A stretch of 46,001 bases of DNA from a virus. Both the position numbers and the translations under genes were made by a program. The DNA is taken from positions 1 through 46,001 of IMG/VR virus record IMGVR_UViG_3300029536_000014; one strand, written 5' to 3'. The notes under the pieces were generated by a model, which made no database searches, was not told the origin of the DNA, and saw nothing but the letters and a program-made list of their open reading frames with translations. Numbering within the stretch: the first letter of the stretch is position 1; each line of letters starts with the position of its first letter. This document shows positions 3,802 through 44,718 of this stretch, in pieces.

Positions 3802-4103
3802 GCATATCAGAATTTGTACAAGTATTCCTCTCGATCTGCGGAGGAGTGTCTATTGTCGGAGGAGCGGTGGCTGTAATTCTTAAGTGGATTACTCCGGCGT
3901 TTCGACTTAACAAGCGAGTTGAGACACTGGAAGAACACGACAAACGAGATTACGAGAGTCTTCAGAGGATTGCGGAACGAGATTCATTGATTCTGGAAGT
4001 GTTATCAACCATGTTGGATAGTCAGATTAGTGGGAATAATGTAGAAGAATTAAAAAAAACAAAACAGAAGCTTACAAATTATCTTGCACAGAATCAGCGT
4101 TAA
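3798..4103 (+). CDS. Membrane-anchored coiled-coil protein
   Basis: 101 aa. N-terminal TM helix FLSICGGVSIVGGAVAVILKWI followed by a charged helical region; ATGA overlap with the upstream gene. Confidence 0.6.
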   Translation: MSISEFVQVFLSICGGVSIVGGAVAVILKWITPAFRLNKRVETLEEHDKRDYESLQRIAERDSLILEVLSTMLDSQISGNNVEELKKTKQKLTNYLAQNQR

Positions 4104-4126
4104 TTGCATTAATAAGAGGTATGCTC

Positions 4127-4327
4127 ATGAAATTATATGTGTTCACGAAAAAAGATATAGACAGGTTCTTGATAGAGTGTAATTTCACACCGGACGAAGA
4201 AAGACTGTTCCGGCTGAGATGTCAGGAACACACGCTTGAATACTGTGCTGAACAGATGAATGTGAGTATATCCACAGCGAAACGGTTAAGTCGGAGGGTA
4301 AACAATAAAATAATTAAAGTATGCTAA
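4127..4327 (+). CDS. Stand-alone sigma-70 region-4-like / LuxR-type HTH protein (candidate late-gene regulator)
   Basis: 66 aa from ATG 4127 (AAGAGG 7 nt upstream; ATG 4121 is too close to the RBS). TPDEERLFRLRCQEHTLEYCAEQMNVSISTAKRLSRRVNNKI has the region-4 HTH pattern. Confidence 0.6.
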   Translation: MKLYVFTKKDIDRFLIECNFTPDEERLFRLRCQEHTLEYCAEQMNVSISTAKRLSRRVNNKIIKVC

Positions 4328-4334
4328 AAAGTAA

Positions 4335-4366
4335 GGAGAGGATATTTCTACCCTCTCCCATTTTTT
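4335..4366. terminator. Bidirectional intrinsic terminator between convergent genes
   Basis: GGAGAGG (4335-4341) pairs with CCTCTCC (4352-4358), then CATTTTTT. An A-rich tract upstream gives a U-tract on the other strand. Confidence 0.75.
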
Positions 4367-4535
4367 AACAAAAATCTTCTTTTACAACCCTTTCAAGTAG
4401 TTTTATCAAATATTCTGGCGGAGTTCTTCTTTCTGCCTCCCAGTCTTCTATGGTTCTCTTGGGTATCTCGTACTTATCAGAAAAAACCTTCTGACTCAAT
4501 CCGGTAAGTGATCTTAATTCTTTTATTGTCATCAT
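4365..4535 (-). CDS. Small XRE-type HTH protein (56 aa), last gene of the antisense moron
   Basis: Not in the track (<60 aa). The reverse strand reads MMTIKELRSLTGLSQKVFSDKYEIPKRTIEDWEAERRTPPEYLIKLLERVVKEDFC. RBS GGAGA is upstream of ATG 4535. The pattern is antitoxin/Aca-like HTH. Confidence 0.7.
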   Translation of the reverse strand: MMTIKELRSLTGLSQKVFSDKYEIPKRTIEDWEAERRTPPEYLIKLLERVVKEDFC

Positions 4536-4542
4536 ACTCTCC

Positions 4543-4830
4543 TTAGTCTAAAACTTTTAAATACTGTCTGCGACCGTTCATGTTGTTATCCAGAGCATAA
4601 AAACAAGGATTTTTATTACCCGAAAGGACTTCATTTATTTCATAGTTCCATCCCCAGGGAGCCGTTACCATTAAATTCCCCATGGCGTTTTCGAACGTTT
4701 CCCAGCCTTCTGGAATTTCTACTGTCATTTCATCCCAACACGTTGCTGCACTGTGCGGTGCTCCGTATGTATATACGTTCCTTTTTTCGGCAGATAAAAC
4801 ACCATAATTGCAATAAATTTTAATTTTCAT
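4543..4830 (-). CDS. Hypothetical protein (95 aa), moron gene 2
   Basis: ORF with RBS AGGAGGAA upstream (reverse strand of 4832-4845); tightly packed between 4847-5167 and 4365-4535. No family recognised. Confidence 0.65.
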   Translation of the reverse strand: MKIKIYCNYGVLSAEKRNVYTYGAPHSAATCWDEMTVEIPEGWETFENAMGNLMVTAPWGWNYEINEVLSGNKNPCFYALDNNMNGRRQYLKVLD

Positions 4831-4846
4831 GTTGTATTCCTCCTTT

Positions 4847-5167
4847 TTATAAAACGCGATATCTCACGATATCTTCAACTTTCGCAGGACTTCCATACCA
4901 GTATTTTTCATCTGGATTCCATTTAAGCCCAAATTCTTTTAAAGTCTTTCTGCAATAAAAAGTATTTCCAGAAACGACTCCATCACCAAGATTAAAAAGA
5001 ACTTCACATCCGTCAAGGCAAGCGTTGAAATATTTGCCAAGTTTTGCAAGCTTGAGATCTTCTTTGGCTTTTTCCCATGCTCTTTTAAGAGCTACGGAAA
5101 TTGTGCATTTACACTGTCTTACGATTCCCCATGCGTTTTTCATGATTTCTGACTTGTTATACTTCAT
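4847..5167 (-). CDS. Hypothetical protein (106 aa), moron gene 1
   Basis: ATG 5167 is preceded by GGAGGTAGG. It is the first gene downstream of a sigma-A-type promoter. No family recognised. Confidence 0.65.
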   Translation of the reverse strand: MKYNKSEIMKNAWGIVRQCKCTISVALKRAWEKAKEDLKLAKLGKYFNACLDGCEVLFNLGDGVVSGNTFYCRKTLKEFGLKWNPDEKYWYGSPAKVEDIVRYRVL

Positions 5168-5210
5168 AGTGCCTACCTCCTAAATGTTTTTATTTCCTCT
5201 TTCTGATATT

Positions 5211-5239
5211 ATAATACCACGCAATGCGTGATAAGTCAA
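5211..5239 (-). promoter_or_regulatory. Sigma-A-type promoter with an inverted-repeat operator in the spacer
   Basis: Reverse strand reads TTGACT (5239-5234), a 17-nt spacer, then TGgTATTAT (-10 at 5216-5211, extended -10). The inverted repeat CACGC-AAT-GCGTG (5218-5230) sits between -35 and -10. Confidence 0.7.
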
Positions 5240-5316
5240 TACTTTTTTGACACTTTCTTGAACTTTTTAGATTGATATATCTATGTAAAAATATAATCAG
5301 AAAGGCGGTGTATAAG

Positions 5317-5787
5317 ATGGCATTATATAACAATCCTTATCAATATAGTTTTGGCGTTCCTGGGCAGATGAACCAGTTCCAGCAACAGCCTGTCCAGATT
5401 CCAACTCAACCAGTACAGCAACCACAGCAGAATAATAGCGGTATCCTGTGGGTATCCGGCGAAGTTGGTGCAAAATCCTATCTGGTAGCACCTGGGACAA
5501 GCGTTTTACTGATGGACAGTGAAAGTGAAAAGTTCTACATAAAATCCACAGACGTATCCGGCATGCCGCAGCCACTGCGAACGTTTGAATACCACGAGGT
5601 AGGCTCTCAGATGCCGCCTAAGCAGACTGTTCAGAACATGGACAGTAAATACGTCACCAGACAGGAATACGACGATTTAAAGGGCAAATACGAAGCTATC
5701 ATAAACCGATTAAATTCATTTTCTGAACCTGTTAGGGCTAATACCGTGCAGAAGTCAGCAATCAAGGGAGGAAATGCAGATGAGTAA
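5317..5787 (+). CDS. Gln/Pro-rich hypothetical protein
   Basis: 156 aa from ATG 5317 (AGAAAGGCGGTG upstream; the track start 5272 is TTG without an RBS). The N-terminus is a QQQPVQIPTQPVQQPQQ low-complexity tract. Confidence 0.65.
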   Translation: MALYNNPYQYSFGVPGQMNQFQQQPVQIPTQPVQQPQQNNSGILWVSGEVGAKSYLVAPGTSVLLMDSESEKFYIKSTDVSGMPQPLRTFEYHEVGSQMPPKQTVQNMDSKYVTRQEYDDLKGKYEAIINRLNSFSEPVRANTVQKSAIKGGNADE

Positions 5788-6001
5788 TCCATTATTTAAC
5801 GCACTTGGCGGTGGGATGCCGCAGGGAAATGGGCCAATGCAGATGATACAGCAGTTTATGCAGTTTAAGCAGAATTTTAAAGGAGATCCGAAAGCAGAAG
5901 TTGAGAAAATGCTACAGTCTGGAAGGATTTCACAGCAACAGCTTAATCAGGTTCAACAGATGGCAGGGCAGTTCCAACACATGCTGAAAGGAATGAAATA
6001 G
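5774..6001 (+). CDS. Small Gln/Met-rich hypothetical protein
   Basis: 75 aa; GGGAGG lies upstream of ATG 5774/5780. Composition is rich in Q, M and G. Confidence 0.6.
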   Translation: MQMSNPLFNALGGGMPQGNGPMQMIQQFMQFKQNFKGDPKAEVEKMLQSGRISQQQLNQVQQMAGQFQHMLKGMK

Positions 6002-6054
6002 TACATTACAATCTGGCCAGATTGATGTAAATATACAAAAAGGAGATTATAACT

Positions 6055-6834
6055 ATGGATGGAAATTATAGCTTAGCAGATATTGCCGCTGCTACTGGAA
6101 ACGGTAGAAATAATGACGGCATGTTTGGTGGAGATGGCAGCTGGTGGATTATTGTTTTATTCATTTTTGCTTTCTTCGGATGGGGAAACAACGGCTGGGG
6201 CAATAATGGCAACGGCGGCGGATATACAGCCACGGCAGCTACTCAGGCGGATATTCAGAGAGGATTCGACAATTCCGCAGTAATCAGCAAACTTGACGGA
6301 ATCAACAACGGTCTCTGTGATGGATTCTATGCAGTGAACAACGGTATGCTTACCGGACTCAATGGAATCAACACAAACATCATGCAGACTGGCTTCGGAA
6401 TTCAGCAGGCAATCAATGCTGATACTGTAGCGAATATGCAGAACGCCAACGCACTCCAGGCTCAGCTTGCGAACTGCTGTTGCGAAACCAGGGAAGCTAT
6501 TCAAGGCGTGAACTACAACATGGCGCAGAACACCTGTGCATTACAGAACACCATGAACAACAACACAAGAGACATTATTGACAGCCAGAACGCTGGAACA
6601 AGAGCCATTCTTGATTATCTTTGCAATGAAAAGATTTCTAACTTGCAGGCTGAAAACAATGATCTCAGACGCGCTGCTTCTCAGGATCGCCAGAGTGCGC
6701 TTCTCACAACTGCAATGGCTTCTCAGACACAGCAGCTCATTAATGCAATCAATCCAGCACCGATTCCGGCATATCAGGTTCCTAACCCGAACACATATTA
6801 CGGATGCGGATGCAACACCGGATGTAATTGTTAA
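6055..6834 (+). CDS. Gly/Asn-rich membrane protein with a Cys-rich C-terminus
   Basis: 259 aa with RBS AAAGGAG. The hydrophobic segment WWIIVLFIFAFF is flanked by GGDG and GWGNNGWGNNGNGGG. It contains internal CCC and ends YYGCGCNTGCNC. Confidence 0.7.
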   Translation: MDGNYSLADIAAATGNGRNNDGMFGGDGSWWIIVLFIFAFFGWGNNGWGNNGNGGGYTATAATQADIQRGFDNSAVISKLDGINNGLCDGFYAVNNGMLTGLNGINTNIMQTGFGIQQAINADTVANMQNANALQAQLANCCCETREAIQGVNYNMAQNTCALQNTMNNNTRDIIDSQNAGTRAILDYLCNEKISNLQAENNDLRRAASQDRQSALLTTAMASQTQQLINAINPAPIPAYQVPNPNTYYGCGCNTGCNC

Positions 6835-7986: not shown

Positions 7987-8490
7987 GTAGGGAAGATTTG
8001 TAAGCAGAAATGCTTGACATAGACATTTTTATTGCTTTCCTCCTTTCTTTAAGCAGATGCGTGTCCTTAATAGAAACAGGTTCGGGGTGGAATCTGGAGG
8101 TTGAAAAGCGGATGCAATTTCCGACACGTATCATTGCCGCTAGTGCATGGCGGCATACCTCCTTGTGAGCATATAACTGAACAGTGAAATCCAACCCGTG
8201 CAGAGGTGTGCGGCCGTATAGGCGGTGTTGACGTAGCCCGAAACGTCTCGTGTTTAGGCATAGCACGATAAATACCTTGCTAACCCGGGAATCCGGGTTA
8301 TGTGGAATGTACGCTAGTGGAAAACTGACAGGGTCGCGCTCTGGTCTCCGGTTCGATTCCGGGCATTCCGCTTTGATTTGGTTAGAATTACGCTGTCTGT
8401 ATACAGATGGTCTATGATTCGACTGAATTTATCTCATGAGAAAAGGTTATTGCTTATCCTGCTGTCTGGTGTCCGGATCAAAAAGCATAA
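7987..8490 (+). ncRNA. Candidate large structured non-coding RNA (about 0.5 kb), class unassigned
   Basis: No credible + strand ORF. Nested helices: 8002-8015 (GAAA loop), 8083-8090/8191-8198, 8096-8101/8157-8162, 8135-8140/8150-8155, 8230-8247, and a perfect 8-bp hairpin at 8281-8300. Located next to a tRNA. Confidence 0.45.
8303..8371 (+). ncRNA. tRNA-like module lacking a canonical anticodon arm
   Basis: 7-bp acceptor stem TGGAATG/CATTCCG. T-arm TCCGG-TTCGATT-CCGGG (8347-8363). An AGTGG D-loop motif is present. The central 37 nt cannot form a D-stem plus a 7-nt anticodon loop. Confidence 0.45.
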
Positions 8491-8562
8491 TGAAATGTAG
8501 CTCAGTGGTAGAGCAACATCCGCATAGGGTGCGTGTCGGCGGTTCGATTCCGCCTATTTCAT
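8491..8562 (+). tRNA. tRNA with anticodon CAU (Met or Ile2 type), 72 nt, CCA not encoded
   Basis: Cloverleaf folded by hand: acceptor TGAAATG/TATTTCA; D arm GCTC-AGTGGTA-GAGC; anticodon arm ACATC-CGCATAG-GGTGC; variable loop GTGTC; T arm GGCGG-TTCGATT-CCGCC. Unusual G33 and an A27-C43 mismatch. Confidence 0.7.
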
Positions 8563-8639
8563 TACCCTGCCAGTGGTCTAACTGGCTTAATCCACTTACC
8601 TGCGGCGGCAGGTCAATAAACACGACCAGGAGGATATAT

Positions 8640-9272
8640 ATGCAGAAACTTATTGACACATTAAAATCATTTGGAATTGAGATCCCGGAGGACAAGCAGG
8701 CAGATGTAAAAAAATCACTCTCTGAGCATTATAAGAATGCAAAAGAAGTTGCGAAGACTCTGTCAAAAGTCGAGGGAGAACGTGATGACTGGAAAGAACG
8801 CGCTGAGACAGCAGAGGAAACCTTAAAAGGCTTTGACGGTATCGACCCGGCAAATGTTAAGACCGAGTTAGAGACCTGGAAACAGAAAGCGGCAGATGCA
8901 GAGAAAGAATTCAATGCGAAAATCTATGACCGTGATTTCTCAGATGCTCTGAAAGCAGCACTCGATGATGTTAAATTTTCAAGCGAAGCGGCAAAGAAAT
9001 CAGTCATGGCAGACATCAAAGAAGCAGGTCTTAAGCTGAAAGACGGCAAAATCCTTGGGCTGAACGATCTGATTGAGCAGATGAAACAGTCTGACGCATC
9101 CGCTTTCGTGGATGAATCTCAGCAGCAAGCTCAGCAGAATCAGGCAAGATTTACCACTCATGTTGGACAGCAGCAGACACCGGGAAGCATGACAAAGAAG
9201 GAAATCGAAGCGATCAAAGACCCATCTGAGAGACAGGCTGCGATTGCTCAGAATATCCAGCTATTCCAGTGA
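8640..9272 (+). CDS. Scaffolding protein (Phage_GP20-like)
   Basis: 210 aa from ATG 8640 (AGGAGG 7 nt upstream); the track start 8436 reads through the tRNA. Highly charged helical protein with a Gln-rich tail, directly upstream of the capsid gene. Confidence 0.8.
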   Translation: MQKLIDTLKSFGIEIPEDKQADVKKSLSEHYKNAKEVAKTLSKVEGERDDWKERAETAEETLKGFDGIDPANVKTELETWKQKAADAEKEFNAKIYDRDFSDALKAALDDVKFSSEAAKKSVMADIKEAGLKLKDGKILGLNDLIEQMKQSDASAFVDESQQQAQQNQARFTTHVGQQQTPGSMTKKEIEAIKDPSERQAAIAQNIQLFQ

Positions 9273-22259: not shown

Positions 22260-23681
22260 ATGGAAATTAAAGGCATTGACGTATCATCTTATCAAGGGAA
22301 ACCGGATTGGGCAAAAGTATCGAATTCTGGAATTAAGTTTGCAATTTTGAGAATTCATCAGAAATCCGGCACAGATGCATCATTCGAACACAACTACAAG
22401 GGCTGTAAATCCAATGGAATTCTTATTGGTGGATATAAATACAGTTATGCTTTAACACCGGCACAGGCAATTGACGAAGCTGAGAACTTAATTTCCGTTC
22501 TTGGTGGACGCGGATTGGATTTCCCAGTATTCTATGACCTCGAATGGAAACAGCAGAGAAGTCTTGGAAAACAGGCTATTGAGAATATTGCAGTAGCATT
22601 TCTGACCAGAATCAAGAAAGCCGGTTATAAGGCAGGCATCTATTGCAATCTTGATTGGCACAATAACGTTTTGTCAGATGCGCTGAAACAGTATGATTGT
22701 TGGATTGCTCGTTATCCGGCTAACGACAACGGCTCTGCACAGGAAAGATTACGTCCGAACGTCGGTGTAGGCTGGCAGTATTCCAGTAAAGGAAAAGTTC
22801 CAGGAATTAATGGAAATGTTGATATGGATGTGTTTTACAAGGATTATAGAGATTCTGACCAGAAAGGAGAAACTAAAATGGTAAAAATCAGTAACTGCGG
22901 ACATGATGAAAGAGGAAGATATGCAGGTGGGAAAGCAGGAGATCAGACTGGTACAGAATATCAGATCATGAACTGGTACAGTAGACCGTGGCTCTGTGTC
23001 CTAAGATTCAATGACGCCAAAATCGCAACCATGATTGCAGACATGGCGACAAAAGCGGCACAGAACAATCTCATCGGATACGATCAGGGCACTGCCGGAA
23101 ACAGCAATGACCGGTATTCGTTCTGGCGGCACTTAAAGGCAAGCAACTACGATCCGGCGCAGATCACGGTAGCTTGCGAATCTGATTGCAGCGCAAGTAC
23201 AGCAGCTATCGTCAAGGGAGCTGGGTATCGCTTAAATAACGCAAGACTCAAAGCGGTCAGCATCTATCTGACGACACGAAACATGAGAGCTGCAATGAAG
23301 ATTGCCGGTGCGAAAGTACTGACGGATAGAAAGTATCTGACATCCGGCGACTATCTAAAGGCAGGAGATATCCTCCTGAATGATAACCACCACGTGGCTA
23401 TCGCTGTTACCACCGGCGCAAAAGCAAATACGCTTTCAGCGTCAACTATTCTGTCTAAAACTCCGAAGTGGGTGGGAAAGGTAACTGCAAATACACTTAA
23501 TGTCCGCACATGGGCAGGAACAGAGTATGCACAGCTTAAAAGCTATCCTACACTTGCAAAAGGCAATTTAGTTGATGTATGCGATACCATTAAAGCCAAA
23601 GATGGAGCATCTTGGTACTATATCCGCATTGCCGGAAAATATTTTGGATTTGTTTCTGCAAAATACATCAAAAAGGTATAA
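22260..23681 (+). CDS. Endolysin: GH25 muramidase + Cys/His peptidase-like middle domain + SH3 cell-wall-binding domain
   Basis: 473 aa. N-terminal IKGIDVSSYQGKPDWAKVSNSGIKFAILRI indicates GH25. The middle domain has ESDCSAS...NDNHHVAIAV. The C-terminal NVRTWAGTEYAQLKSYP...WYYIRIAGKYFGFVSAKYI is SH3-like. Confidence 0.85.
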   Translation: MEIKGIDVSSYQGKPDWAKVSNSGIKFAILRIHQKSGTDASFEHNYKGCKSNGILIGGYKYSYALTPAQAIDEAENLISVLGGRGLDFPVFYDLEWKQQRSLGKQAIENIAVAFLTRIKKAGYKAGIYCNLDWHNNVLSDALKQYDCWIARYPANDNGSAQERLRPNVGVGWQYSSKGKVPGINGNVDMDVFYKDYRDSDQKGETKMVKISNCGHDERGRYAGGKAGDQTGTEYQIMNWYSRPWLCVLRFNDAKIATMIADMATKAAQNNLIGYDQGTAGNSNDRYSFWRHLKASNYDPAQITVACESDCSASTAAIVKGAGYRLNNARLKAVSIYLTTRNMRAAMKIAGAKVLTDRKYLTSGDYLKAGDILLNDNHHVAIAVTTGAKANTLSASTILSKTPKWVGKVTANTLNVRTWAGTEYAQLKSYPTLAKGNLVDVCDTIKAKDGASWYYIRIAGKYFGFVSAKYIKKV

Positions 23682-23687
23682 AACTTA

Positions 23688-23722
23688 AGCCCCTTGGAGG
23701 TTACTCCTTGGGGCTGTTTTTT
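23688..23722 (+). terminator. Intrinsic terminator after the endolysin gene
   Basis: AGCCCCTTGGAG / CTCCTTGGGGCT stem (one internal 2x2 mismatch) followed by GTTTTTT. Confidence 0.7.
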
Positions 23723-23737
23723 ACATATTGTATCAAA

Positions 23738-23763
23738 TTCGTGTTGCATTTCGTGTTGCATAG
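23738..23763. repeat. attP arm repeat (2 x GTGTTGCAT), left arm
   Basis: TTCGTGTTGCATTTCGTGTTGCATAG recurs with 1 mismatch at 23954-23979, on the other side of the tRNA-derived core. Confidence 0.6.
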
Positions 23764-23886
23764 TTCTTCTTTTTTATGCCAAAACTGGCAAAATAACATA
23801 TTTTATGAGCTAATTTGAAATTGCCGAAACCATTGAAAACACTACGTTCTTTGCGAGAACCAGTGAATACAAGATTTTCATAAAAA

Positions 23887-23911
23887 TGCGGATGACAGGA
23901 CTTGAACCTGT
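23887..23911 (-). other. attP core: 3' end fragment of a host tRNA gene
   Basis: The reverse strand reads ACAGG-TTCAAGT-CCTGT-CATCCGCA, a T-arm plus 3' acceptor strand, but no 5' tRNA half precedes it. It lies 40 nt from the integrase gene. Confidence 0.65.
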
Positions 23912-23949
23912 AAGAAAAAGCCTAACATTCCCTATTTTACAGCATTTGT

Positions 23950-25041
23950 TTATTTCGTGTTGCATTTTGTGTTGCATAGCTTTGAAAAATAATCATTCCC
24001 AATTTCATTCATCTCTTTTTCTCGATCAACCAGAACGTGCCGATATACATTTTTTAATGTGGTATCATCCTCCCAACCGCCGCGCTGCATAATATATACA
24101 TCTGGAATTCCAAGAGTATGCAACTCAGATGCGCAATAATGACGCAAATCATGAAAACGGAAATGATGTATATGATTATCCTCTAAAACATCAGCGAATC
24201 TATTAGATATTTGCGCCGGATTCAAATTTGTTATTTTTCCATGTATACCTTTAAGTTTTTCTGCAACGAAATCCGGAAATGGAATAAAACGATCGCCAGC
24301 AAAAGATTTTGGTCTTTTGATAACCCAACCATGAGAATCATTCATAACCATAGCATATTCGACATGTACTATGTTCTGCTTGATATGATCAGAATTAAGC
24401 GCGCAGATTTCTGACCGCCTCATTGGACCGAATGCTGCCAGAAGAACAGGTATCTCTAATTCACTACCTACAGTACATTCAATTACCTTTTTGACTTCGG
24501 CAGATGTAGGTACATAGATTTTCGGTCTTACCTTTTTAGGTAAGGAAGTTCTTAAGATGAAATCCGAACGATAAGTCTTCAAGACAGTAGAAAGAAAGCC
24601 ATGCATATTGTACACAGTTTTTGGCGAATGAGTAAGTGCTTCACGATTCATTTCAGCTTGAACATCCTCTTGAGTGATTTCCATTATATTTAATGACATA
24701 AGTTTAGCCATGTCTCTTTTGACAGATCGCTTATATTCTCTAATAGTTCCAGGGGATAAAACACCTGTTCTGCTTTCTATGTATTTATTACATGCCTCTT
24801 TTAATGTCATATCTTCTGGTGGAACATATCGCGCAGTCAATACTTCACTTTCTTTTTTTGCTGCCCATTCGGCAGCCATTTGCTCACAGATTCGCTTCCC
24901 TTTTTTGCTAGGATCTGAGCATGTAAAAGATTTATAAACCCTTTTCTTTTTGATGGTCCCGTCTGATAATGGGATTTCTTCGATGTGACTGAATACCTGA
25001 CATCTCCATGAGCCAGATGGCAGTTTTTTTGCAGTTGCCAT
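23950..25041 (-). CDS. int: Tyrosine integrase
   Basis: 363 aa. The C-terminal HDLRHYCASEL...GGWEDDTTLKNVYRHV carries the H-x-x-R and catalytic Tyr motifs. Adjacent to the attP core. Confidence 0.9.
   Translation of the reverse strand: MATAKKLPSGSWRCQVFSHIEEIPLSDGTIKKKRVYKSFTCSDPSKKGKRICEQMAAEWAAKKESEVLTARYVPPEDMTLKEACNKYIESRTGVLSPGTIREYKRSVKRDMAKLMSLNIMEITQEDVQAEMNREALTHSPKTVYNMHGFLSTVLKTYRSDFILRTSLPKKVRPKIYVPTSAEVKKVIECTVGSELEIPVLLAAFGPMRRSEICALNSDHIKQNIVHVEYAMVMNDSHGWVIKRPKSFAGDRFIPFPDFVAEKLKGIHGKITNLNPAQISNRFADVLEDNHIHHFRFHDLRHYCASELHTLGIPDVYIMQRGGWEDDTTLKNVYRHVLVDREKEMNEIGNDYFSKLCNTKCNTK
23954..23979. repeat. attP arm repeat (2 x GTGTTGCAT), right arm, overlapping the integrase 3' end
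   Basis: TTCGTGTTGCATTTTGTGTTGCATAG. On the reverse strand it encodes the integrase C-terminal tail CNTKCNTK. Confidence 0.6.
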
Positions 25042-25181
25042 TTCTTTTCCTCCTTATTAACCGAACAAACTTTCTGACTTGTCCGAACACACCGAAGATG
25101 ATACAATATGACTTGTCAGGCGATACGTTTCACTTCAGTATGCTTTGCGGAACGTAAAAATATTTTTCTTTTTTTTTTAAA

Positions 25182-25212
25182 AACCGGTTCTCATTGGTAG
25201 TGAGAGCCGGTT
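25182..25212. terminator. Bidirectional intrinsic terminator
   Basis: AACCGGTTCTCA / TGAGAGCCGGTT 12-bp stem, flanked by a T-run (25166-25178) and CTTTTTT. Confidence 0.75.
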
Positions 25213-25217
25213 CTTTT

Positions 25218-26096
25218 TTATAAAAGTTCTGATTTTTTCTGGTCAAATTCTTCTTGAGTAATAATACCGCTATCTAAAAGCTCTTTGTAATCCTTCAGTA
25301 GTTCAACGGATGTTTTCTGATTTCGAACATTTTCAACAGCATCAGAGCTTTTGGAAATATTGAAGCTCTTTAACTGCATATCTATATTTGAACTACAGCG
25401 GAATCCAATAGTATTTATTTGATTGGTTTCGATATTCCGCATTTTCATAGATGCATAAGAATCCACTTCAATGTTATCACTTGTTGTGGTAGCAGTTCCA
25501 GTAGTAGTGGAATTATTCTTTCCTTTGGTTTTCTTTCCAGTTCCAACAGCTGCACCGACTATAGTTCCAACTCCCGGAGCAATAGCGGTTCCAACAACGG
25601 CTCCTGCTAAATGCCCTCTTCGTTTCGTTTTTTCTTTACTTTTCCCTTTAGTGTGAGATGTTGTAGTTGTCTTTTCTACTGTTCTGTATTCCGGCCCGTT
25701 CCATTCATAGTCGAAAAGTTCATATTTGGTTGGAGCATCTGACACTGTAACAGACCCATCTTTCCATTGCTTCAAATCAAATCTTGCGTGTTTGGAACCA
25801 AGCTCAAAATCCTCCTTACCGGATATAACTCTCAGATTCAATACTCGAACAGGTTTTTCTACAACCGCTGGCTGGGTTGCTACGGAATTATTTGATATTG
25901 CAGGTTTTTGAACCTTATTTTTAATAGACAGCAAAAGTGCAAAAATAAGATACAAAACAGCAATTCCAAATACCTCAAGTACAACAACGACCATAATATT
26001 GTCTGATGAAAGATCGTTTGAACTCATCAAGGCCACAATCATTAATACAATTAATGCGGTCCAAACGATCATCAACACATTTCGTATTTTTTTCAT
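25218..26096 (-). CDS. Membrane protein with glycine-zipper segment and C-terminal SHOCT domain
   Basis: 292 aa from ATG 26096 (AAGGGGGA upstream; the track GTG is at 26114). Two N-terminal TM helices, GHLAGAVVGTAIAPGVGTIVGAAVGTG, a Thr-rich linker, and ELLKDYKELLDSGIITQEEFDQKKSELL (SHOCT). Confidence 0.75.
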   Translation of the reverse strand: MKKIRNVLMIVWTALIVLMIVALMSSNDLSSDNIMVVVVLEVFGIAVLYLIFALLLSIKNKVQKPAISNNSVATQPAVVEKPVRVLNLRVISGKEDFELGSKHARFDLKQWKDGSVTVSDAPTKYELFDYEWNGPEYRTVEKTTTTSHTKGKSKEKTKRRGHLAGAVVGTAIAPGVGTIVGAAVGTGKKTKGKNNSTTTGTATTTSDNIEVDSYASMKMRNIETNQINTIGFRCSSNIDMQLKSFNISKSSDAVENVRNQKTSVELLKDYKELLDSGIITQEEFDQKKSELL

Positions 26097-26116
26097 ATTT
26101 CCCCCTTTTGACACGA

Positions 26117-26821
26117 TTACTCAAAATTCTCGATATAATTCTTATATAGATTCCTTATTTTGGCAGCCTCCCTCTGCCTGATTGGAACAATATCCCCCGA
26201 TATCATCTCAAAATGATCTGATGCATCTTTAATTTCGTCCATGTTGACGATATAACTTTGATGGCAACGGAGAAATCTTCCATCAAGATGCGGCTCTATA
26301 TCTGACAGCTTTCCACGTGCTACATGAATAACGCCGCAAGTACAGTGGACGAGAATTGATTTATTTCGGCTTTCTATGTATTCGATATGCCGGAATTCTA
26401 CCCGGTGGAAGTGGTCTCGGTTTTTGATAGTTAAGGCTTTCTCTCGGATATCTTCCAACGTGTGCGCTACGACAGAAAACATGCGTCCATGTTCAGAACC
26501 TTTGATGATGTAATGCACTGGTAAGACGTCTAATGCGTCAAATACATAGTTTTTATATGCTGTCCAGAAGGCAATGTTGCCATTATATCCATTTTTCCTG
26601 AGCTGCTTTGCGACATTTATGCCATTCTCATTATTTAGGACCACATCCAGCACGACTATATCGTACCATTGACCGTCTGCTATATCATCAATCAGCGGCT
26701 TCCCACTACTATAAGTGTTTAGCGTGTAGCTCTTGTCTCCACACTTTTTCAAAAACTCATCAACATGAGCCTTAAAAAAATCAATCTGCAAAGGATTATC
26801 GTCACAAATCGCAATTTTCAT
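26117..26821 (-). CDS. Response regulator, REC + LytTR DNA-binding domain (AgrA/LytR family), no cognate kinase
   Basis: 234 aa. REC residues DD7-8, D59 (IVVLD), T87, K107. The LytTR part is HIEYIESRNKSILVHC...FLRCHQSYIVNMDEI. No histidine kinase ORF occurs anywhere in the genome. Confidence 0.85.
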   Translation of the reverse strand: MKIAICDDNPLQIDFFKAHVDEFLKKCGDKSYTLNTYSSGKPLIDDIADGQWYDIVVLDVVLNNENGINVAKQLRKNGYNGNIAFWTAYKNYVFDALDVLPVHYIIKGSEHGRMFSVVAHTLEDIREKALTIKNRDHFHRVEFRHIEYIESRNKSILVHCTCGVIHVARGKLSDIEPHLDGRFLRCHQSYIVNMDEIKDASDHFEMISGDIVPIRQREAAKIRNLYKNYIENFE

Positions 26822-26889
26822 TCAAATCATTCCCTTATGGGCGTTGTTTTCGCCATTTGCAAAAAAAAGTGTTTAAATATGTTATTTTT

Positions 26890-26918
26890 ATTATAACATC
26901 GTTAAATTTAGTTGTAAA
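26890..26918 (-). promoter_or_regulatory. Sigma-A-type promoter of the LytTR operon
   Basis: Reverse strand reads TTTACA (26918-26913), a 17-nt spacer, then TATAAT (26895-26890). A ~65-nt leader contains a GGCG-AAAACAA-CGCC hairpin. Confidence 0.65.
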
Positions 26919-26943
26919 TAGACATTTTTAGGTGATTTGTAAA

Positions 26944-27378
26944 ATGAAAATAATCAAAAATATACTAATTATAATAGGAGCTGTGCTTTTGCTTAATTAC
27001 ATTGTTTGTTTACCAATGTGCGTAGACGATTATATCCGCGAAGAGTCAGAAGTGTATTCTGTCCAAAATGCGTACAGATCTTCTACCCTACATAAGAATA
27101 GCGCCCATGAAATAAAGCAGACCATGCCACCGTTTTTATTCGCCCTGCCACTAAACAGAAAAGACTATATCTTTGATGTTACGAATAATTTCTATGCAAT
27201 CATAAACATATCGGTGTATATCTGGCAGTTTCCAAGGGCGAACATTAGTGGTATAATAGCAAAAAATGAACGAATGTTCGGTTATATTTCCCACAAACCG
27301 CACATATACTGTAATGTAGGTGGTAATTGCAATAGGGAGGGTTATTTATGGATTATAAGAAAGAGATTATTGAAATGA
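26944..27378 (+). CDS. Hypothetical protein with an N-terminal signal/TM segment
   Basis: 144 aa from ATG 26944. The IIKNILIIIGAVLLLNYIVCL hydrophobic N-terminus is the only clear feature. Divergent from the LytTR operon. Weak RBS and atypical composition. Confidence 0.5.
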   Translation: MKIIKNILIIIGAVLLLNYIVCLPMCVDDYIREESEVYSVQNAYRSSTLHKNSAHEIKQTMPPFLFALPLNRKDYIFDVTNNFYAIINISVYIWQFPRANISGIIAKNERMFGYISHKPHIYCNVGGNCNREGYLWIIRKRLLK

Positions 27379-27458
27379 TAGAAAATATACATAGTGAAAA
27401 ATTTATGAAGTTTTTATACAACATGATTATTTCGTTCAAAAAACAATGGGGGTATTAA
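27348..27458 (+). CDS. Small 36-aa protein with a strong RBS
   Basis: GGGAGGG lies 6 nt upstream of ATG 27348. Product MDYKKEIIEMIENIHSEKFMKFLYNMIISFKKQWGY. Overlaps the 3' end of 26944-27378 in another frame and is followed by a terminator. Confidence 0.5.
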   Translation: MDYKKEIIEMIENIHSEKFMKFLYNMIISFKKQWGY

Positions 27459-27462
27459 GAAA

Positions 27463-27488
27463 GCAGGGAATTAATCCCTGCCTTTTTT
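27463..27488. terminator. Bidirectional terminator between convergent genes
   Basis: GCAGGGA / TCCCTGC stem followed by CTTTTTT. The stop codon of the repressor gene lies in the loop. Confidence 0.7.
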
Positions 27489-27824
27489 ATGGAGAAATTC
27501 AATCATGTCGAAAACGCTTTTCTTATCAGATTCGCTTAATTCAATCAGCAACTTAACATGTTCAACGATGTTTGGATTTGACATCATCTTTGGAATAAAA
27601 TCCGTGTCTGTTTCCAAATTCTCTTCCCATCCCATTAGGTAAGCGGGCGTTGTACTAAGTGCTTTCGCTAACTTATCTATGTATTCAGCAGGAACTTTAT
27701 CAATATCACCCTTTTCATATCTAAATATAGTTGATCTTGAAACTCCCAATTTCTCAGCTAACTCATCAGCACTCATATTAAGTTGTTTTCTTCTTTTTTT
27801 CATTTGTTCACCAGTTTCCGACAT
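27471..27824 (-). CDS. cI-like repressor (XRE HTH, no S24 peptidase domain)
   Basis: 117 aa from ATG 27824 (GGAGG 8 nt upstream). LNMSADELAEKLGVSRSTIFRYEKGD is the HTH_3 pattern. Divergent from a cro-like gene. Confidence 0.8.
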   Translation of the reverse strand: MSETGEQMKKRRKQLNMSADELAEKLGVSRSTIFRYEKGDIDKVPAEYIDKLAKALSTTPAYLMGWEENLETDTDFIPKMMSNPNIVEHVKLLIELSESDKKSVFDMIEFLHKKGRD

Positions 27825-27850
27825 TTTCCACACCTCCTTTCCTTGAAAAT

Positions 27851-27879
27851 ATAATACCACAAGTGATGCAAATATGCAA
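27851..27879 (-). promoter_or_regulatory. Repressor-gene promoter (P_RM-like)
   Basis: Reverse strand reads TTGCAT (27879-27874), a 17-nt spacer, then TGgTATTAT (-10 at 27856-27851). Embedded in TGCA-rich repeats (ATGCAAATATGCAA, TTGCAAAAATGCGA). Confidence 0.6.
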
Positions 27880-27911
27880 CAAAAATAATTGCAAAAATGC
27901 GATTTTTAGTA

Positions 27912-27940
27912 TTGACAAATGCGACTGCGAGAGGTAATAT
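27912..27940 (+). promoter_or_regulatory. Early lytic promoter (P_R-like)
   Basis: TTGACA (27912-27917), a 17-nt spacer, then TAATAT (27935-27940). Inverted half-sites TGCGACT (27919-27925) and AGTCGCA (27951-27957) flank the -10. Confidence 0.65.
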
Positions 27941-27950
27941 ATAATCATAA

Positions 27951-27977
27951 AGTCGCAATAATGCTACTGGAAAGGAG
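27951..27977 (+). repeat. 27-nt perfect direct repeat, copy 1 (includes an RBS)
   Basis: AGTCGCAATAATGCTACTGGAAAGGAG is identical to 28198-28224. Confidence 0.9.
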
Positions 27978-27986
27978 GTGAAACTT

Positions 27987-28208
27987 GTGATTGTAAATAT
28001 AGCAAGACTTAAAGGTAAAATTGTTGAGCATGGAAATACGCAAGAAGCTGTTGCAAGCGCAATTGGTATGGACAGAAGTACTTTTTACCGCAAACTGAAA
28101 GACGGCGGCGAGAAATTTACAATCGGTGAAATTCACGGAATTGTAAGCGCAGTTCCTTTAAGCAGGGACGAAGCAATAGACATTTTTTTTACACAGCAGT
28201 CGCAATAA
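27987..28208 (+). CDS. Cro-like HTH regulator
   Basis: 73 aa from GTG 27987 (GGAGG 8 nt upstream; the track GTG 27978 is inside the RBS). GNTQEAVASAIGMDRSTFYRKLKDG is the HTH. Confidence 0.7.
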   Translation: MIVNIARLKGKIVEHGNTQEAVASAIGMDRSTFYRKLKDGGEKFTIGEIHGIVSAVPLSRDEAIDIFFTQQSQ

Positions 28209-28224
28209 TGCTACTGGAAAGGAG
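28198..28224 (+). repeat. 27-nt perfect direct repeat, copy 2
   Basis: Identical to 27951-27977. Overlaps the cro-like stop codon and supplies the RBS of ORF 28233. Confidence 0.9.
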
Positions 28225-28232
28225 ACGAAAAC

Positions 28233-28586
28233 ATGAAATACAGTCCGCTTGGTAGTGGAAAGCTGATATTTCAAACTTTCAATGATGGTTGCTTGAAAAC
28301 CACTTTTGAAAGAGAGAACGGATTGAAGTCCGAATATGAAATTTATGTAAATTGGACGAATCCGAATCAGTTAGCAGAAGTTTCATTTCAGTTGCCCTTC
28401 CGCGATTGGCAGACACTTGAAAAGTCTGAGGTTTGGAAAAATCTGGATGAATTTCTGTCGGAAGTTCAAATCGAATATATTCCGAAGTACCGCCAAGCCC
28501 AACCAATTGTAGAGGAAAAGGTTGTGTATAGAAGTCTGTTAGGTTCTTTAATTGCATTCTTTCGTGATAAATTGACTCGCCAATAG
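28233..28586 (+). CDS. Hypothetical protein (117 aa), overlapped antisense by 28279-28872
   Basis: ATG lies 8 nt after GGAAAGGAG (from the repeat). The composition looks protein-like, but 308 nt are shared with a longer ORF on the opposite strand. Confidence 0.5.
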   Translation: MKYSPLGSGKLIFQTFNDGCLKTTFERENGLKSEYEIYVNWTNPNQLAEVSFQLPFRDWQTLEKSEVWKNLDEFLSEVQIEYIPKYRQAQPIVEEKVVYRSLLGSLIAFFRDKLTRQ

Positions 28587-28872
28587 CACGCCCTTTTAAG
28601 CATGAATAATGGGTTCCGCTATACACATAAGAAATATTTACGATTGATATGGCAACTCTGGAATGATTGATGATTTCAAAATGAACAATCAGTTCATTAT
28701 TATCTTTCAACTTGAAACCAATAGGAATAAACTCTATCTTTTTTCGAGATTGGAATAAGTTCCATGCAGTTCCAGCAGACCCTATTAACCCAAGCATAAA
28801 GGAAACATTTTCAAATGTAATGATTTCTTTAGCTGATTTTAAAATTGAAATGATTTGATTTATTTTAATCAC
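28279..28872 (-). CDS. Hypothetical membrane-anchored beta-rich protein; start unresolved
   Basis: The reverse frame is open for 735 nt (to 29013) in AT-rich DNA. It contains a TM-like MLGLIGSAGTAWNLF followed by a beta-rich domain. Candidate starts are GTG 28872 and ATG 28797; neither has a clean RBS. Confidence 0.45.
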   Translation of the reverse strand: MIKINQIISILKSAKEIITFENVSFMLGLIGSAGTAWNLFQSRKKIEFIPIGFKLKDNNELIVHFEIINHSRVAISIVNISYVYSGTHYSCLKGRAIGESIYHERMQLKNLTDFYTQPFPLQLVGLGGTSEYIRFELPTEIHPDFSKPQTFQVSANRGRATEMKLLLTDSDSSNLHKFHIRTSIRSLFQKWFSSNHH

Positions 28873-28914
28873 CTCCCCGTACAGGGAGTATAACACGAAA
28901 CGAGGATTTTTAAA

Positions 28915-29493
28915 ATGAAATTTCCGAGATATGTATATGTGATTACTCATGTAGTCACAGGAAAGAAATATGTAGGCAGCACAAGAAATGTTAAATCCAG
29001 ATTTGCAGAGCATTTAAATCTTTTAAAATCTGGCAGACATACTGTCGAACTTTTTCAATCTGATTGTGATACTTTTGGTGTCAATTTAACTTGTGAGACG
29101 ATTGACACAATATCGGATTATAGTGAAAAAGAAAAAGAGCATGAATGGCAGAAAAAACTTGGGACATTAAATCCGTCAACTGGTTATAACTACAAAGATC
29201 AGAAATGGAATAACCACAAAGACTGGGCTTTAAGCCATGGGAAAAGCACTGAAGGAAGAGAAAAATGGAAAGAAATATTAGAAAACAGTTCCGAACCATG
29301 TGTTCTGATTTCTGCGTGCATCACAAATTCCTGGCTCGGCAGAAACGGATTTGCAAAAGAATTAGGAATTTCCATAAAAGAGCTGAAAGAAATTGAATCC
29401 TATAAAAAAGAACCAACAATCAACCAGCTTAGAAAGATTAGTGAATTATCATCAATTCCTATGGATTATATTTATGTGCCAAATATTTTTTGA
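28915..29493 (+). CDS. GIY-YIG nuclease fused to a C-terminal XRE-type HTH
   Basis: 192 aa. YVYVITHVVTGKKYVGSTRNVKSRFAEH is the GIY-(10)-YVG...R motif. The C-terminal FAKELGISIKELKEIESYKKEPTINQLRKI is the HTH. Confidence 0.75.
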   Translation: MKFPRYVYVITHVVTGKKYVGSTRNVKSRFAEHLNLLKSGRHTVELFQSDCDTFGVNLTCETIDTISDYSEKEKEHEWQKKLGTLNPSTGYNYKDQKWNNHKDWALSHGKSTEGREKWKEILENSSEPCVLISACITNSWLGRNGFAKELGISIKELKEIESYKKEPTINQLRKISELSSIPMDYIYVPNIF

Positions 29494-43146: not shown

Positions 43147-44718
43147 TTGGATGTTGATAGGATGGCAAATGATCAGAATTTAAATAATAGAGCGGCGACA
43201 CAGTTTCGAAGCGGTGAGGAAGCGGTGAGAAATGGGAAAAAAGGCGGTATCGCATCTGGATATTCTAGGAGACAAAAAAAAGCCCTTTCTGATTATGTGA
43301 AAATTATAGCTGAAAGCCCTGCATCAAGTACTGCAAAAAAGAAACTTGCAAAAATGGGGATTGCTGACGAAGACGCAAATAACATGGCAGTCGTAGCAAC
43401 TTCTCTGTATAAAAAAGCGGCAGATGGAAATATACAGGCTATCGAAAAATGGGAGCAGCTAACAGCAGCTTCAAAAGACGATGATGAAAAATATGAACTT
43501 CCTGCCAGAGTACTTGGCAAGGCGTTCGTGGATATTAACCGACAGATTAAGCCTAATATTGAATATGTATTTGAGGGCGGTCGTGGTGGCCTAAAATCGT
43601 CGTTTGTAGCCTTTAAGATTGTTGAGCTTATCAAGAATAATCCCCAGATGCACGCCTGCATTACAAGACAAGTAGCCGGTACTCTGAAAGATTCTGTATA
43701 TGCTAACATGAAATGGGCTATCAATGAACTGGGATTGATGGAAGAATTTGAATGCAAGGTGTCGCCACTTGAGATCAAGTATATTAAGACAGGGCAGACA
43801 ATATACTTCCGTGGTCTGGACGATGAAACCAAACTGAAATCTATTAAGCCGGAATTTGGATATATCGGAATCCTTTGGAAAGAAGAAAAAGACCAGATGA
43901 AGGGAGATGCTCAGGAACGTTCTGTTAATCAGTCAGTACTTCGTGGCGGCGATGAATCCTATGATTTTTCATCGTATAACCCACCAAAATCAAAATCAAA
44001 CTGGGTAAACAGGATCAAGCTCACACCTAACCCGAAAAGAGTTATTCATCATTCGAGTTATTTGGAAGCCCCGGCGGAGTGGCTCGGACAGAAGTTTATT
44101 GACGATGCAGCACATCTGAAAGAAATCAATCCAGAAGCCTATGAACATGAATACCTGGGTGTTCCGAATGGCGATGGTGGAAACGTATTTGAATACCTAG
44201 AAATCAGAGATATTACAGATGAAGAAATTAGCCGCATGGATCGCATTTTTGCTGGTGTAGATTTTGGATGGTATCCTGACCAGTTCTGCTATCTCCGAAC
44301 TTATTACGATTCTGCTAGAGAGAAAATATATCTGATTGACGAATTGTATGTAAATAAATGGAGCAACTCCAAGACCGCTGATTGGATCAAGAAAAAAGGC
44401 TATGACGATTATACGATGATATGTGATTCTGCGGAGCCTAAGTCCGTGAATGATTTCCGGGACGCCGGACTTCCTGCCAGAGGAGCAATCAAAGGGCCGG
44501 GAAGTATCGAGTATGGTTTTAAGTTCTTACAGACTAAGACACTTGTCATTGACCCGAAGCGGACACCGAACGCATACAAAGAAATTACAGAATATGAGTA
44601 TGATCGGGACAAAGAGGGAAATGTAATAAGCGGTTATCCTGATGGAAACGATCATGCAATTTCGGCACTCAGGTATGCTTATGAGCCGTTATTTAACAGG
44701 AGGGGGTACAGTGCATAA
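43147..44718 (+). CDS. terL: Terminase large subunit (PBSX/XtmB-type) with an N-terminal small-subunit-like extension
   Basis: 523 aa from TTG 43147 (GAAAGGA upstream), or from ATG 43162. The TerL core starts near aa 125 (YVFEGGRGGLKSS is Walker A-like; WKEEKD). The N-terminus GGIASGYSRRQKK...AADGNIQAIEKWEQL is TerS-like. Confidence 0.85.
   Translation: MDVDRMANDQNLNNRAATQFRSGEEAVRNGKKGGIASGYSRRQKKALSDYVKIIAESPASSTAKKKLAKMGIADEDANNMAVVATSLYKKAADGNIQAIEKWEQLTAASKDDDEKYELPARVLGKAFVDINRQIKPNIEYVFEGGRGGLKSSFVAFKIVELIKNNPQMHACITRQVAGTLKDSVYANMKWAINELGLMEEFECKVSPLEIKYIKTGQTIYFRGLDDETKLKSIKPEFGYIGILWKEEKDQMKGDAQERSVNQSVLRGGDESYDFSSYNPPKSKSNWVNRIKLTPNPKRVIHHSSYLEAPAEWLGQKFIDDAAHLKEINPEAYEHEYLGVPNGDGGNVFEYLEIRDITDEEISRMDRIFAGVDFGWYPDQFCYLRTYYDSAREKIYLIDELYVNKWSNSKTADWIKKKGYDDYTMICDSAEPKSVNDFRDAGLPARGAIKGPGSIEYGFKFLQTKTLVIDPKRTPNAYKEITEYEYDRDKEGNVISGYPDGNDHAISALRYAYEPLFNRRGYSA

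Follow-up and report, generated by a model that had tools for sequence, protein, structure and literature searches.

In the genome of a temperate phage (IMG/VR virus record IMGVR_UViG_3300029536_000014, positions 1 to 46,001; this whole 46,001-nucleotide stretch is called the window), two adjacent reverse-strand genes at 25218–26918 were analyzed. The first encodes an orphan response regulator with receiver (REC) and LytTR domains, and the second encodes a membrane protein with a glycine zipper and a SHOCT domain. A first-pass annotation had treated the two as one system, with the membrane protein as modulator or dedicated effector of the regulator. The comparison of related loci argues instead for two independent prophage accessory genes ("morons"), placed in the slot between the cI-like repressor gene and the integrase gene and probably co-transcribed from one strong promoter, to which we assign a probability of about 0.6. 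A new signaling system composed of the regulator and the membrane protein was not supported and should not be carried forward. The earlier statement that no described system has this composition is true, mainly because the pair does not form a system.

The neighborhoods of regulator and SHOCT homologues were collected from metagenome assemblies, IMG/VR, and GTDB genomes and were scored by tblastn. The SHOCT gene was found 20 nt downstream of the regulator gene in all 50 IMG/VR loci whose regulator was 96–100% identical to that of the window, and it was kept in this clade with either type of next gene, tyrosine integrase or serine recombinase. At about 71% regulator identity, the downstream gene was in 30 of 30 loci an unrelated one, encoding a protein of 184–189 amino acids with a zinc ribbon, one transmembrane (TM) helix, and a tRNA_anti-like OB fold. 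The regulator was solo in the clades at 66, 65, 53, 51, and 48% identity, where the next gene was a convergent lysin. The SHOCT gene was therefore downstream of the regulator in one of seven regulator clades, consisting of related prophages with regulators at least 96% identical.

SHOCT homologues with 56–75% identity occupied the same slot, flanked by a cI-like gene and an integrase gene, under their own promoters and without a regulator, and none of about 50 remoter homologues had a regulator nearby. A regulator remnant was sought upstream of the SHOCT-only genes and was not found. In all 26 close loci and in about 10 remote loci, a tyrosine or serine recombinase gene followed the SHOCT-family gene at a distance of less than 250 nt. 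Joint occurrence of the two genes, as one system would imply, was thus contradicted by the exact replacement of one gene, by the five solo regulator clades, and by a SHOCT family that is mostly free of regulators.

The replacement was visible at the DNA level. When the window was compared to locus L175, which carries the 71% regulator, homology extended from 27380 to 26154 (a divergent open reading frame (ORF), the promoter, and the regulator gene) and was found again from 25220, at 95% through the integrase. The cargo ORF was the sole difference between these homologous flanks. Because the cargo ORF was exchanged between the same flanks, and because of the clade distribution, the two genes are separable units. 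The SHOCT gene occupies a swappable cargo slot that extends from the regulator to a shared terminator.

The regulator gene (26117–26821, minus strand) encodes 234 amino acids of the AgrA/LytR family, as assigned by Pfam, phrog_8810, and alignment. Both domain calls of the first-pass annotation were confirmed above the Pfam cut-offs, with Response_reg at 41.8 bits (cut-off 30.2) over residues 3–116 and LytTR at 51.3 bits (cut-off 22.6) over residues 138–204. The protein matched phrog_8810 over its full length (1e-34), and PDB matches were obtained for the receiver (1e-6) and for the LytTR domain of 3d6w (9e-6). The phospho-acceptor set D7, D8, D59, T87, and K107 was present as had been described. 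In an alignment of 28 homologues with 26–97% identity, D7 and K107 were invariant, D8 and D59 were at least 90% conserved, and position 87 was T or S.

The two-domain architecture, the phospho-acceptor aspartate at 59, and the full set of acidic pocket, T, and K residues are shared with the AgrA, LytR, and BtsR regulators. However, the NCBIfam scores for these three were far below their cut-offs (38.7 versus 400, 50.8 versus 375, and 38.9 versus 246, respectively), the phage lacks agrBDC or any kinase, identity to any regulator of the species-representative genomes was at most 39%, and K107 is followed by G. By its sequence, the regulator is a member of the AgrA/LytR architectural family and not an orthologue of AgrA, LytR, or BtsR. 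The closest regulator cluster, P0121, was found on 828 contigs, a sister allele was found in 180 collection blocks, and 55 records of the GenBank phage set held regulator relatives.

Several alleles showed signs of recombination. The 260 nt upstream of the regulator start (compared over window positions 26812–27081) were identical in locus L158 (4741–5010) and near-identical in L175. The integrase of L175 was 95–96% identical to that of the window, yet its regulator was just 71% identical and its cargo was different. Proteins P0122 and P0143 look like recombinants of regulator alleles, as the N-terminal part of P0143 matches P0121, and in P0122 the receiver half resembles P0121 and the LytTR half resembles P0124. 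The regulator gene thus appears to undergo mosaic exchange with breakpoints inside it. In P0161, P0168, and P0170, a cI-like helix-turn-helix (HTH) N-terminus was joined in frame to the late receiver and LytTR domain of a phage regulator, and the N-terminus of P0170 was nearly identical to the window repressor. These three are either natural deletion derivatives from cI to the regulator or assembly chimeras.

The cognate histidine kinase of a classical two-component system is not encoded in the window, in agreement with the first-pass annotation. No HATPase or HisKA domain was detected by Pfam in window ORFs of at least 200 amino acids, and when two AgrC-type kinases and an Hpt protein served as tblastn queries, nothing was returned below E = 0.1. 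The same queries revealed no kinase or Hpt gene in about 160 related phage loci. The phage regulator would therefore need a host phosphodonor, since it has kept its phospho-acceptor residues in a phage that encodes no kinase; the dependence on the host that had been proposed earlier gains support in this form.

The phage regulator clade is well apart from the cellular regulators (best match 39% identity in the species-representative genomes). Among 80 genome loci of cellular relatives, an AgrC-type HATPase_c_5 kinase was located within 6 kb in 38 and an Hpt gene in 12, and some relatives were fused to Hpt (P0175, P0178, and P0180). In L022 (5001–6498), L187, L190, L191, and other loci, the nearest cellular relatives were followed by a gene for a 114-amino-acid single-domain Hpt protein, and the Hpt gene of L022 was in turn followed by an ORF encoding a Spo0A_C domain. 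This REC-LytTR/Hpt phosphorelay layout is unusual and was seen in Oscillospiraceae and Ruminococcus.

The putative joint transcript of regulator and cargo is preceded by a sigma-70-type promoter, TTTACA-17-TATAAT with TG (26890–26918, minus strand; 11 of 12 matches). It was the top match within 23800–28400, so the promoter proposed in the first-pass annotation was retained, and it was kept in three diverged leader types. An inverted repeat surrounds the -10 element (26872–26906), with 14-nt arms at 26872–26885 and 26893–26906 that are 86% complementary, and it resembles an operator of the kind bound by dimeric HTH proteins. Related palindromes around -10 were judged by eye to be present in the L002-type and L015-type promoters. 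The repeats at 26871–26919 had been singled out for binding assays. They proved to be mainly this inverted repeat and not direct repeats of the LytTR type, whose binding architecture is a 9–10-bp direct repeat with a 12-bp spacer (PMC6193735).

A leader box, GCAAATGGCGAAAA with the core AATGGCGAAA, was located at 26847–26860 on the minus strand, 27–36 nt upstream of the regulator start codon, and was present as one exact copy in the window. The core was found in three diverged leaders (window-, L002-, and L015-type), at 27–36 or 46–55 nt before the start codon. L015 carried it twice with the 21-bp period typical of LytTR sites, and L019 carried a different perfect 10-nt repeat, likewise with a 21-bp period. 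The core was not found upstream of SHOCT genes without a regulator. A scan of IMG/VR for the 14-mer GCAAATGGCGAAAA gave more than 120 scattered single matches on unrelated contigs and was uninformative. The distribution of the core is suggestive only, and the AATGGCGAAA box is proposed as a candidate autoregulatory site for the LytTR domain that may also set cargo expression. Repression is as likely as activation at this site.

For the terminator predicted at 25182–25212, a hairpin of 14 pairs flanked by an A-run and a T-run was present, but it was weaker on the minus strand than had been claimed. It was scored as a terminator solely on the plus strand, and on the minus strand the full stem is followed by a short T-run (TTT, or TTTTT with a shorter stem). 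The hairpin is part of the conserved flank, because homology with phages of other cargo resumes at 25220, right after the SHOCT coding sequence. It is plausible as a bidirectional terminator closing the cargo slot.

The SHOCT gene (25218–26096, minus strand) encodes 292 amino acids from ATG 26096, with the ribosome-binding site AAGGGGGA. An alternative GTG at 26114 would yield 298 amino acids; the homologue alignment starts at MKK, which favors ATG 26096. The SHOCT domain (PF09851) was detected by Pfam at 36.6 bits (cut-off 27) over residues 267–292 (25221–25298), and the protein matched phrog_4431 and phrog_888. A precomputed match to PF27000 (PH_gly_zipper) is attached to the identical database protein P0001 and to many homologues, and it is marked weak for P0052. 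The two TM segments and the glycine zipper described earlier were also seen. Hydrophobic segments are centered near residues 16 and 45, and AlphaFold2 predicted helices at 2–25 and 31–62 together with SHOCT helices at 263–275 and 281–291.

In the AlphaFold2 model, a beta domain is split into residues 84–149 and 198–243, and the zipper forms an insert. The zipper, GAVVGTAIAPGVGTIVGAAVGTG, covers residues 165–187 (25536–25604), and a Lys/Thr-rich linker lies beside it between the beta halves. This 23-residue insert has Lys/Arg-rich segments on both sides and is too short for two membrane crossings; it may dip into the membrane and so anchor a cytoplasmic domain. The protein is predicted to face the cytoplasm, with two TM helices and a short hairpin of the glycine zipper fixing it to the membrane. 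SHOCT has been proposed as an inner-leaflet anchor or assembly domain (PMC11237479).

A profile search of the SHOCT family against 1.84 billion representative proteins recovered 130 clusters (50% identity) at E ≤ 1e-30 and 520 when the limit was relaxed to E ≤ 1e-10. In most clusters, the protein had 210–250 amino acids and no N-terminal TM pair, and some had a zinc ribbon in its place. Because many members lack the TM pair, the conserved core of the family is the split beta domain, the zipper, and SHOCT. The family profile gave no meaningful match among PDB sequences, and tblastn of the SHOCT protein against 50,697 GenBank phage records gave 0 matches. Its role is most likely an envelope function expressed in the lysogen, such as superinfection exclusion or abortive-infection defense.

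In the proposed explanation, the regulator would receive phosphate on D59 from a host AgrC-type (HPK10) kinase or from an Hpt phosphorelay protein; these donors are named since they partner the nearest cellular relatives. The phosphorylated regulator would then bind DNA via its LytTR domain, with the AATGGCGAAA box in its own leader as the best candidate target. Binding there would set the level of the regulator transcript and consequently that of any downstream cargo gene. The second gene would belong to a widespread prophage family (PH_gly_zipper plus SHOCT) that normally lies just upstream of an integrase without a regulator and is here carried as co-transcribed cargo. A broader view, which we hold only tentatively, is that a large, gut-wide clade of Lachnospiraceae prophages uses kinase-less AgrA-type regulators, phosphorylated by an AgrC-type kinase or an Hpt phosphorelay of the host, to tap peptide quorum sensing or stress signaling of that host at the phosphotransfer step, setting the expression of swappable defense or exclusion cargo or of host genes.

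Several observations weigh against this explanation. The loci were counted on "best 80" lists swollen by near-identical contigs of one metagenome project, so clades are the meaningful unit. Each regulator allele was perfectly tied to one cargo type, as a functional pairing of regulator and cargo would also give; simple adjacency predicts this linkage, and functional pairing in those two clades is still compatible with it. The leader types are partly joined by recombination, which reduces them to about three independent observations. The box was not enriched elsewhere in the phage (9 matches at no more than one mismatch, compared to 5.75 expected), it is missing from the regulator clades L386 and L388, and the single copy in the window lies downstream of -10, which fits repression over the activation typical of LytTR regulators.

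Regarding the regulator protein, the phage clade has G after K107 (positions 107–108 K-G) where K-P is usual. One clade (P0159; L388 4001–4699) has both D8S and D59E, yet lies within a prophage lysogeny module. Given these changes, phosphorylation may be dispensable. Regarding the cargo, the AlphaFold2 model of the SHOCT protein was moderate (pLDDT 69, below 50 in the zipper region). Foldseek of this model against PDB gave nothing below E = 0.4, with PTB/PH-like folds as non-significant top matches. No defense model of PADLOC-DB 2.0 was matched at E ≤ 0.01 by the regulator, the SHOCT protein, or the divergent ORF, and the function suggested for the SHOCT protein is drawn entirely from position and architecture.

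Three other explanations were weighed. A dedicated pair resembling HdrRM/BrsRM, in which the membrane protein sequesters the regulator, senses for it, or is its specific effector, and in which the zinc-ribbon/OB-fold protein does the same for the 71% allele, is unlikely. It would account for two genes 20 nt apart under one promoter, for the perfect linkage in 50/50 and 30/30 loci, and for the membrane anchoring of both cargo proteins. Cargo diversity alone does not exclude it, since the membrane inhibitors of LytTR regulatory systems are non-homologous between systems (PMC6193735). However, adjacency within a 1.6-kb cassette suffices for the linkage, five of the seven regulator clades have no downstream partner and one has a replacement, and the SHOCT family is overwhelmingly regulator-free and integrase-linked. 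HdrRM and BrsRM share with the window the order of a LytTR regulator gene and a membrane-protein gene in one operon. Their regulators lack a receiver, their 9-bp direct repeats with a 12-bp spacer (11–13) lie 4–11 bp upstream of -35, and their membrane partner is obligatory (PMC6193735). The window regulator has a complete receiver whose phospho-acceptor residues are conserved, and a repeat scan at 19–23 bp spacing found just a weak 8/10 pair from -35 to just past -10 and none upstream of -35. The parallel drawn in the first-pass annotation was thus lost, and the window locus lacks all three testable defining features of these systems.

An input of host signals to the lysis-lysogeny decision, similar to VqmA-Phi/Qtip of VP882, was judged equally improbable. 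Here the phosphorylated regulator would activate the divergent small gene (26932–27378) or another phage gene that tips the switch. The regulator does lie in the lysogeny module beside the cI-like gene and divergent from the small ORF, which has no consensus sigma-70 promoter of its own, and the box would be about 35–45 nt upstream of the expected promoter of that gene. Phage receivers of quorum sensing are known (PMC10426928, PMC11945551), and the C. difficile phages LIBA2945 and LIBA6276 have a solo regulator right after three antirepressor/BRO genes (LIBA2945, MF547663.1, locus L391, 1272–4702), a layout which hints that some phage regulators are tied to induction control. Nevertheless, no box-like site was found in the cI-cro region, the regulator clades L019 and L388 lack the divergent ORF, and the family of this ORF is equally present in phages without a regulator. 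Its N-terminal TM helix also gives the product a membrane or extracytoplasmic look, unlike a cytoplasmic antirepressor; in the VqmA-Phi/Qtip type, an adjacent small antirepressor inactivates cI.

A regulator that acts independently of phosphorylation, or as a decoy, seems at least as doubtful. The protein would be constitutive, or would drain phosphate from or compete with a host Agr-like pathway, and would serve lysogenic conversion and not sensing. K-G in place of K-P, the D8S and D59E clade, a strong promoter of constitutive look, the abundance of the regulator (P0121 on 828 contigs), and the constitutive action suggested for some orphan LytTR regulators are consistent with this. On the other side, D7, D8, D59, T/S87, and K107 are otherwise kept across 26–100% identity, which is unexpected for an inert receiver. 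D59E in P0159/L388 is a classic phosphomimetic change, which suggests that the regulator is active in its phosphorylated-like state.

Two independent accessory genes remained the preferred explanation, and partial likenesses to other known systems were found for each gene. CdtR of Clostridioides difficile is reportedly an orphan LytTR response regulator of the binary-toxin locus. As described, it resembles the window regulator as a kinase-less REC-LytTR protein of an accessory locus directly upstream of associated cargo genes, but it is chromosomal with toxin cargo. Among phages, VP882 carries part of a host signaling pathway as VqmA-Phi/Qtip (PMC10426928), and the agr3 cassette of phiCDHM1 contains agrB, agrD, and agrC without agrA (PMC4124054). 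In both, the phage holds a partial pathway and the host supplies the rest; phiCDHM1, with kinase and signal and no regulator, is the mirror image of the window. Unlike these cases, the input of the window regulator would be phosphotransfer and not ligand binding, and no downstream antirepressor was identified; the product of the divergent small ORF is probably anchored in the membrane, and this ORF is also found in phages without the regulator.

LytTR homologs or response regulators of phages have been listed in passing since 2014 (PMC4124054; PMC11945551), and the literature on phage-encoded REC-LytTR regulators yielded such passing mentions and no functional study. A full regulator and kinase pair was observed in Ruminococcus phage NatCom_29429 (PV036441.1, locus L392, 3794–6078), with a REC-LytTR gene at 3998–4726 followed by a gene for a 430-amino-acid HATPase_c_5 kinase at 4786–6078. 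A 42-amino-acid ORF just upstream of the pair could be a signal-peptide precursor, and all three are annotated as hypothetical.

Regarding the cargo protein, the lactococcal Sie2009 and the streptococcal Ltp are exclusion proteins encoded between int and the repressor gene. PdpSau is a membrane-anchored prophage protein of exclusion or abortive infection (PMC10127798). The SHOCT protein would share with all three the profile of a small, membrane-anchored accessory protein expressed in the lysogen, encoded in or beside the lysogeny module, and swappable among related prophages. This likeness, which includes its constant place beside integrases, is an analogy and does not demonstrate what the protein does. 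No sequence or structural similarity to prophage exclusion or abortive-infection proteins was found by PADLOC, Foldseek, or the PDB profile search. TelE and EsxX are glycine-zipper membrane toxins of the secreted LXG type (PMC10434224, PMC12744356) and likewise have a GxxxG-type zipper in a short hydrophobic stretch. In contrast, the zipper of the SHOCT protein, inserted in a beta domain between Lys/Arg-rich linkers, is more likely an anchor.

By gene content, the window is a complete temperate siphovirus-type genome. It contains a terminase gene (43147–44718), genes for Phage_min_cap2 (minor capsid protein 2), scaffold, and further head and tail ORFs from 2186 to about 21500, and a GH25/ELLD lysin gene (22260–23681). 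The names attached to near-identical database proteins point to Blautia obeum as host. The tyrosine integrase gene (23950–25041, minus strand; Pfam Phage_integrase) lies 176 nt downstream of the SHOCT gene, which confirmed the adjacency noted earlier. The lysogeny module further includes a cI-like HTH repressor gene (27471–27860, minus strand; Pfam HTH_3, 1e-15) and a cro-like gene taken from the ORF list (27978–28208, plus strand).

The divergent small ORF (26932–27378, plus strand; likely start ATG 26944) encodes an N-terminal TM helix and had 0 matches in Pfam, PHROG, and PADLOC. Its homologues, with 29–99% identity, form several alleles that share the motif NI(P/S)VYxWQ(L/F)xR (for example in L002, L027, L010, and L012). 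The family was seen with the regulator alone, with the SHOCT gene alone, and with both. The ORF was considered as the true partner of the regulator and was rejected, as the family is equally frequent in phages without a regulator. It appears to be a regular member of the lysogeny module with no specificity for the regulator, and its product may be an exclusion-type membrane protein.

Other features were noted in and around the module. An inverted repeat with 16-nt arms and T-runs at its sides (27454–27490) lies at the 3' end of the cI-like gene, past the convergent small ORF, and is a probable bidirectional terminator. An ORF resembling a GIY-YIG homing endonuclease with a C-terminal HTH (28915–29493, plus strand) overlaps the start of a 244-amino-acid antisense ORF (28279–29013, minus strand). 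The latter has no family match and also overlaps a 117-amino-acid ORF (28233–28586, plus strand). Both ORFs overlapping around 28279–29013 were kept in L158. An Rfam search of 23600–28300 gave a single chance miRNA match and nothing else. The tRNA-Met called by ARAGORN at 8490–8563 falls within the scaffold-protein ORF (8436–9272) and is probably spurious. Prophage versions with a serine recombinase (L003 8602–9434; L009 7587–8362) sit beside or in cotJC (Mn_catalase) of the cotJABC spore-coat operon, and the Mn_catalase product is merely 68–72 amino acids at these two loci, which suggests truncation through integration.

Both the regulator and the SHOCT gene belong to existing families, and the remaining interest lies in a phage regulator that is widespread and conserved, lacks a kinase, and has a cargo slot next to it. 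The exact swapping downstream of the regulator marks out this slot as a small, regulated site for cargo, and a search of it could uncover new exclusion or defense genes. The PH_gly_zipper/SHOCT family comprises at least 130 clusters at 50% identity and is widespread in prophages as an integrase-linked gene family without known function. Should the regulator prove to be phosphorylated by a kinase or Hpt protein of the host, it would clearly exemplify a virus that joins a two-component pathway of its bacterium at the phosphotransfer step, and would be a two-component-system counterpart to the ligand-level eavesdropping by VP882 VqmA-Phi. The setting would be the abundant Blautia and Lachnospiraceae prophages of the human gut, and the regulator would provide a direct handle on the host signals that shape prophage expression.

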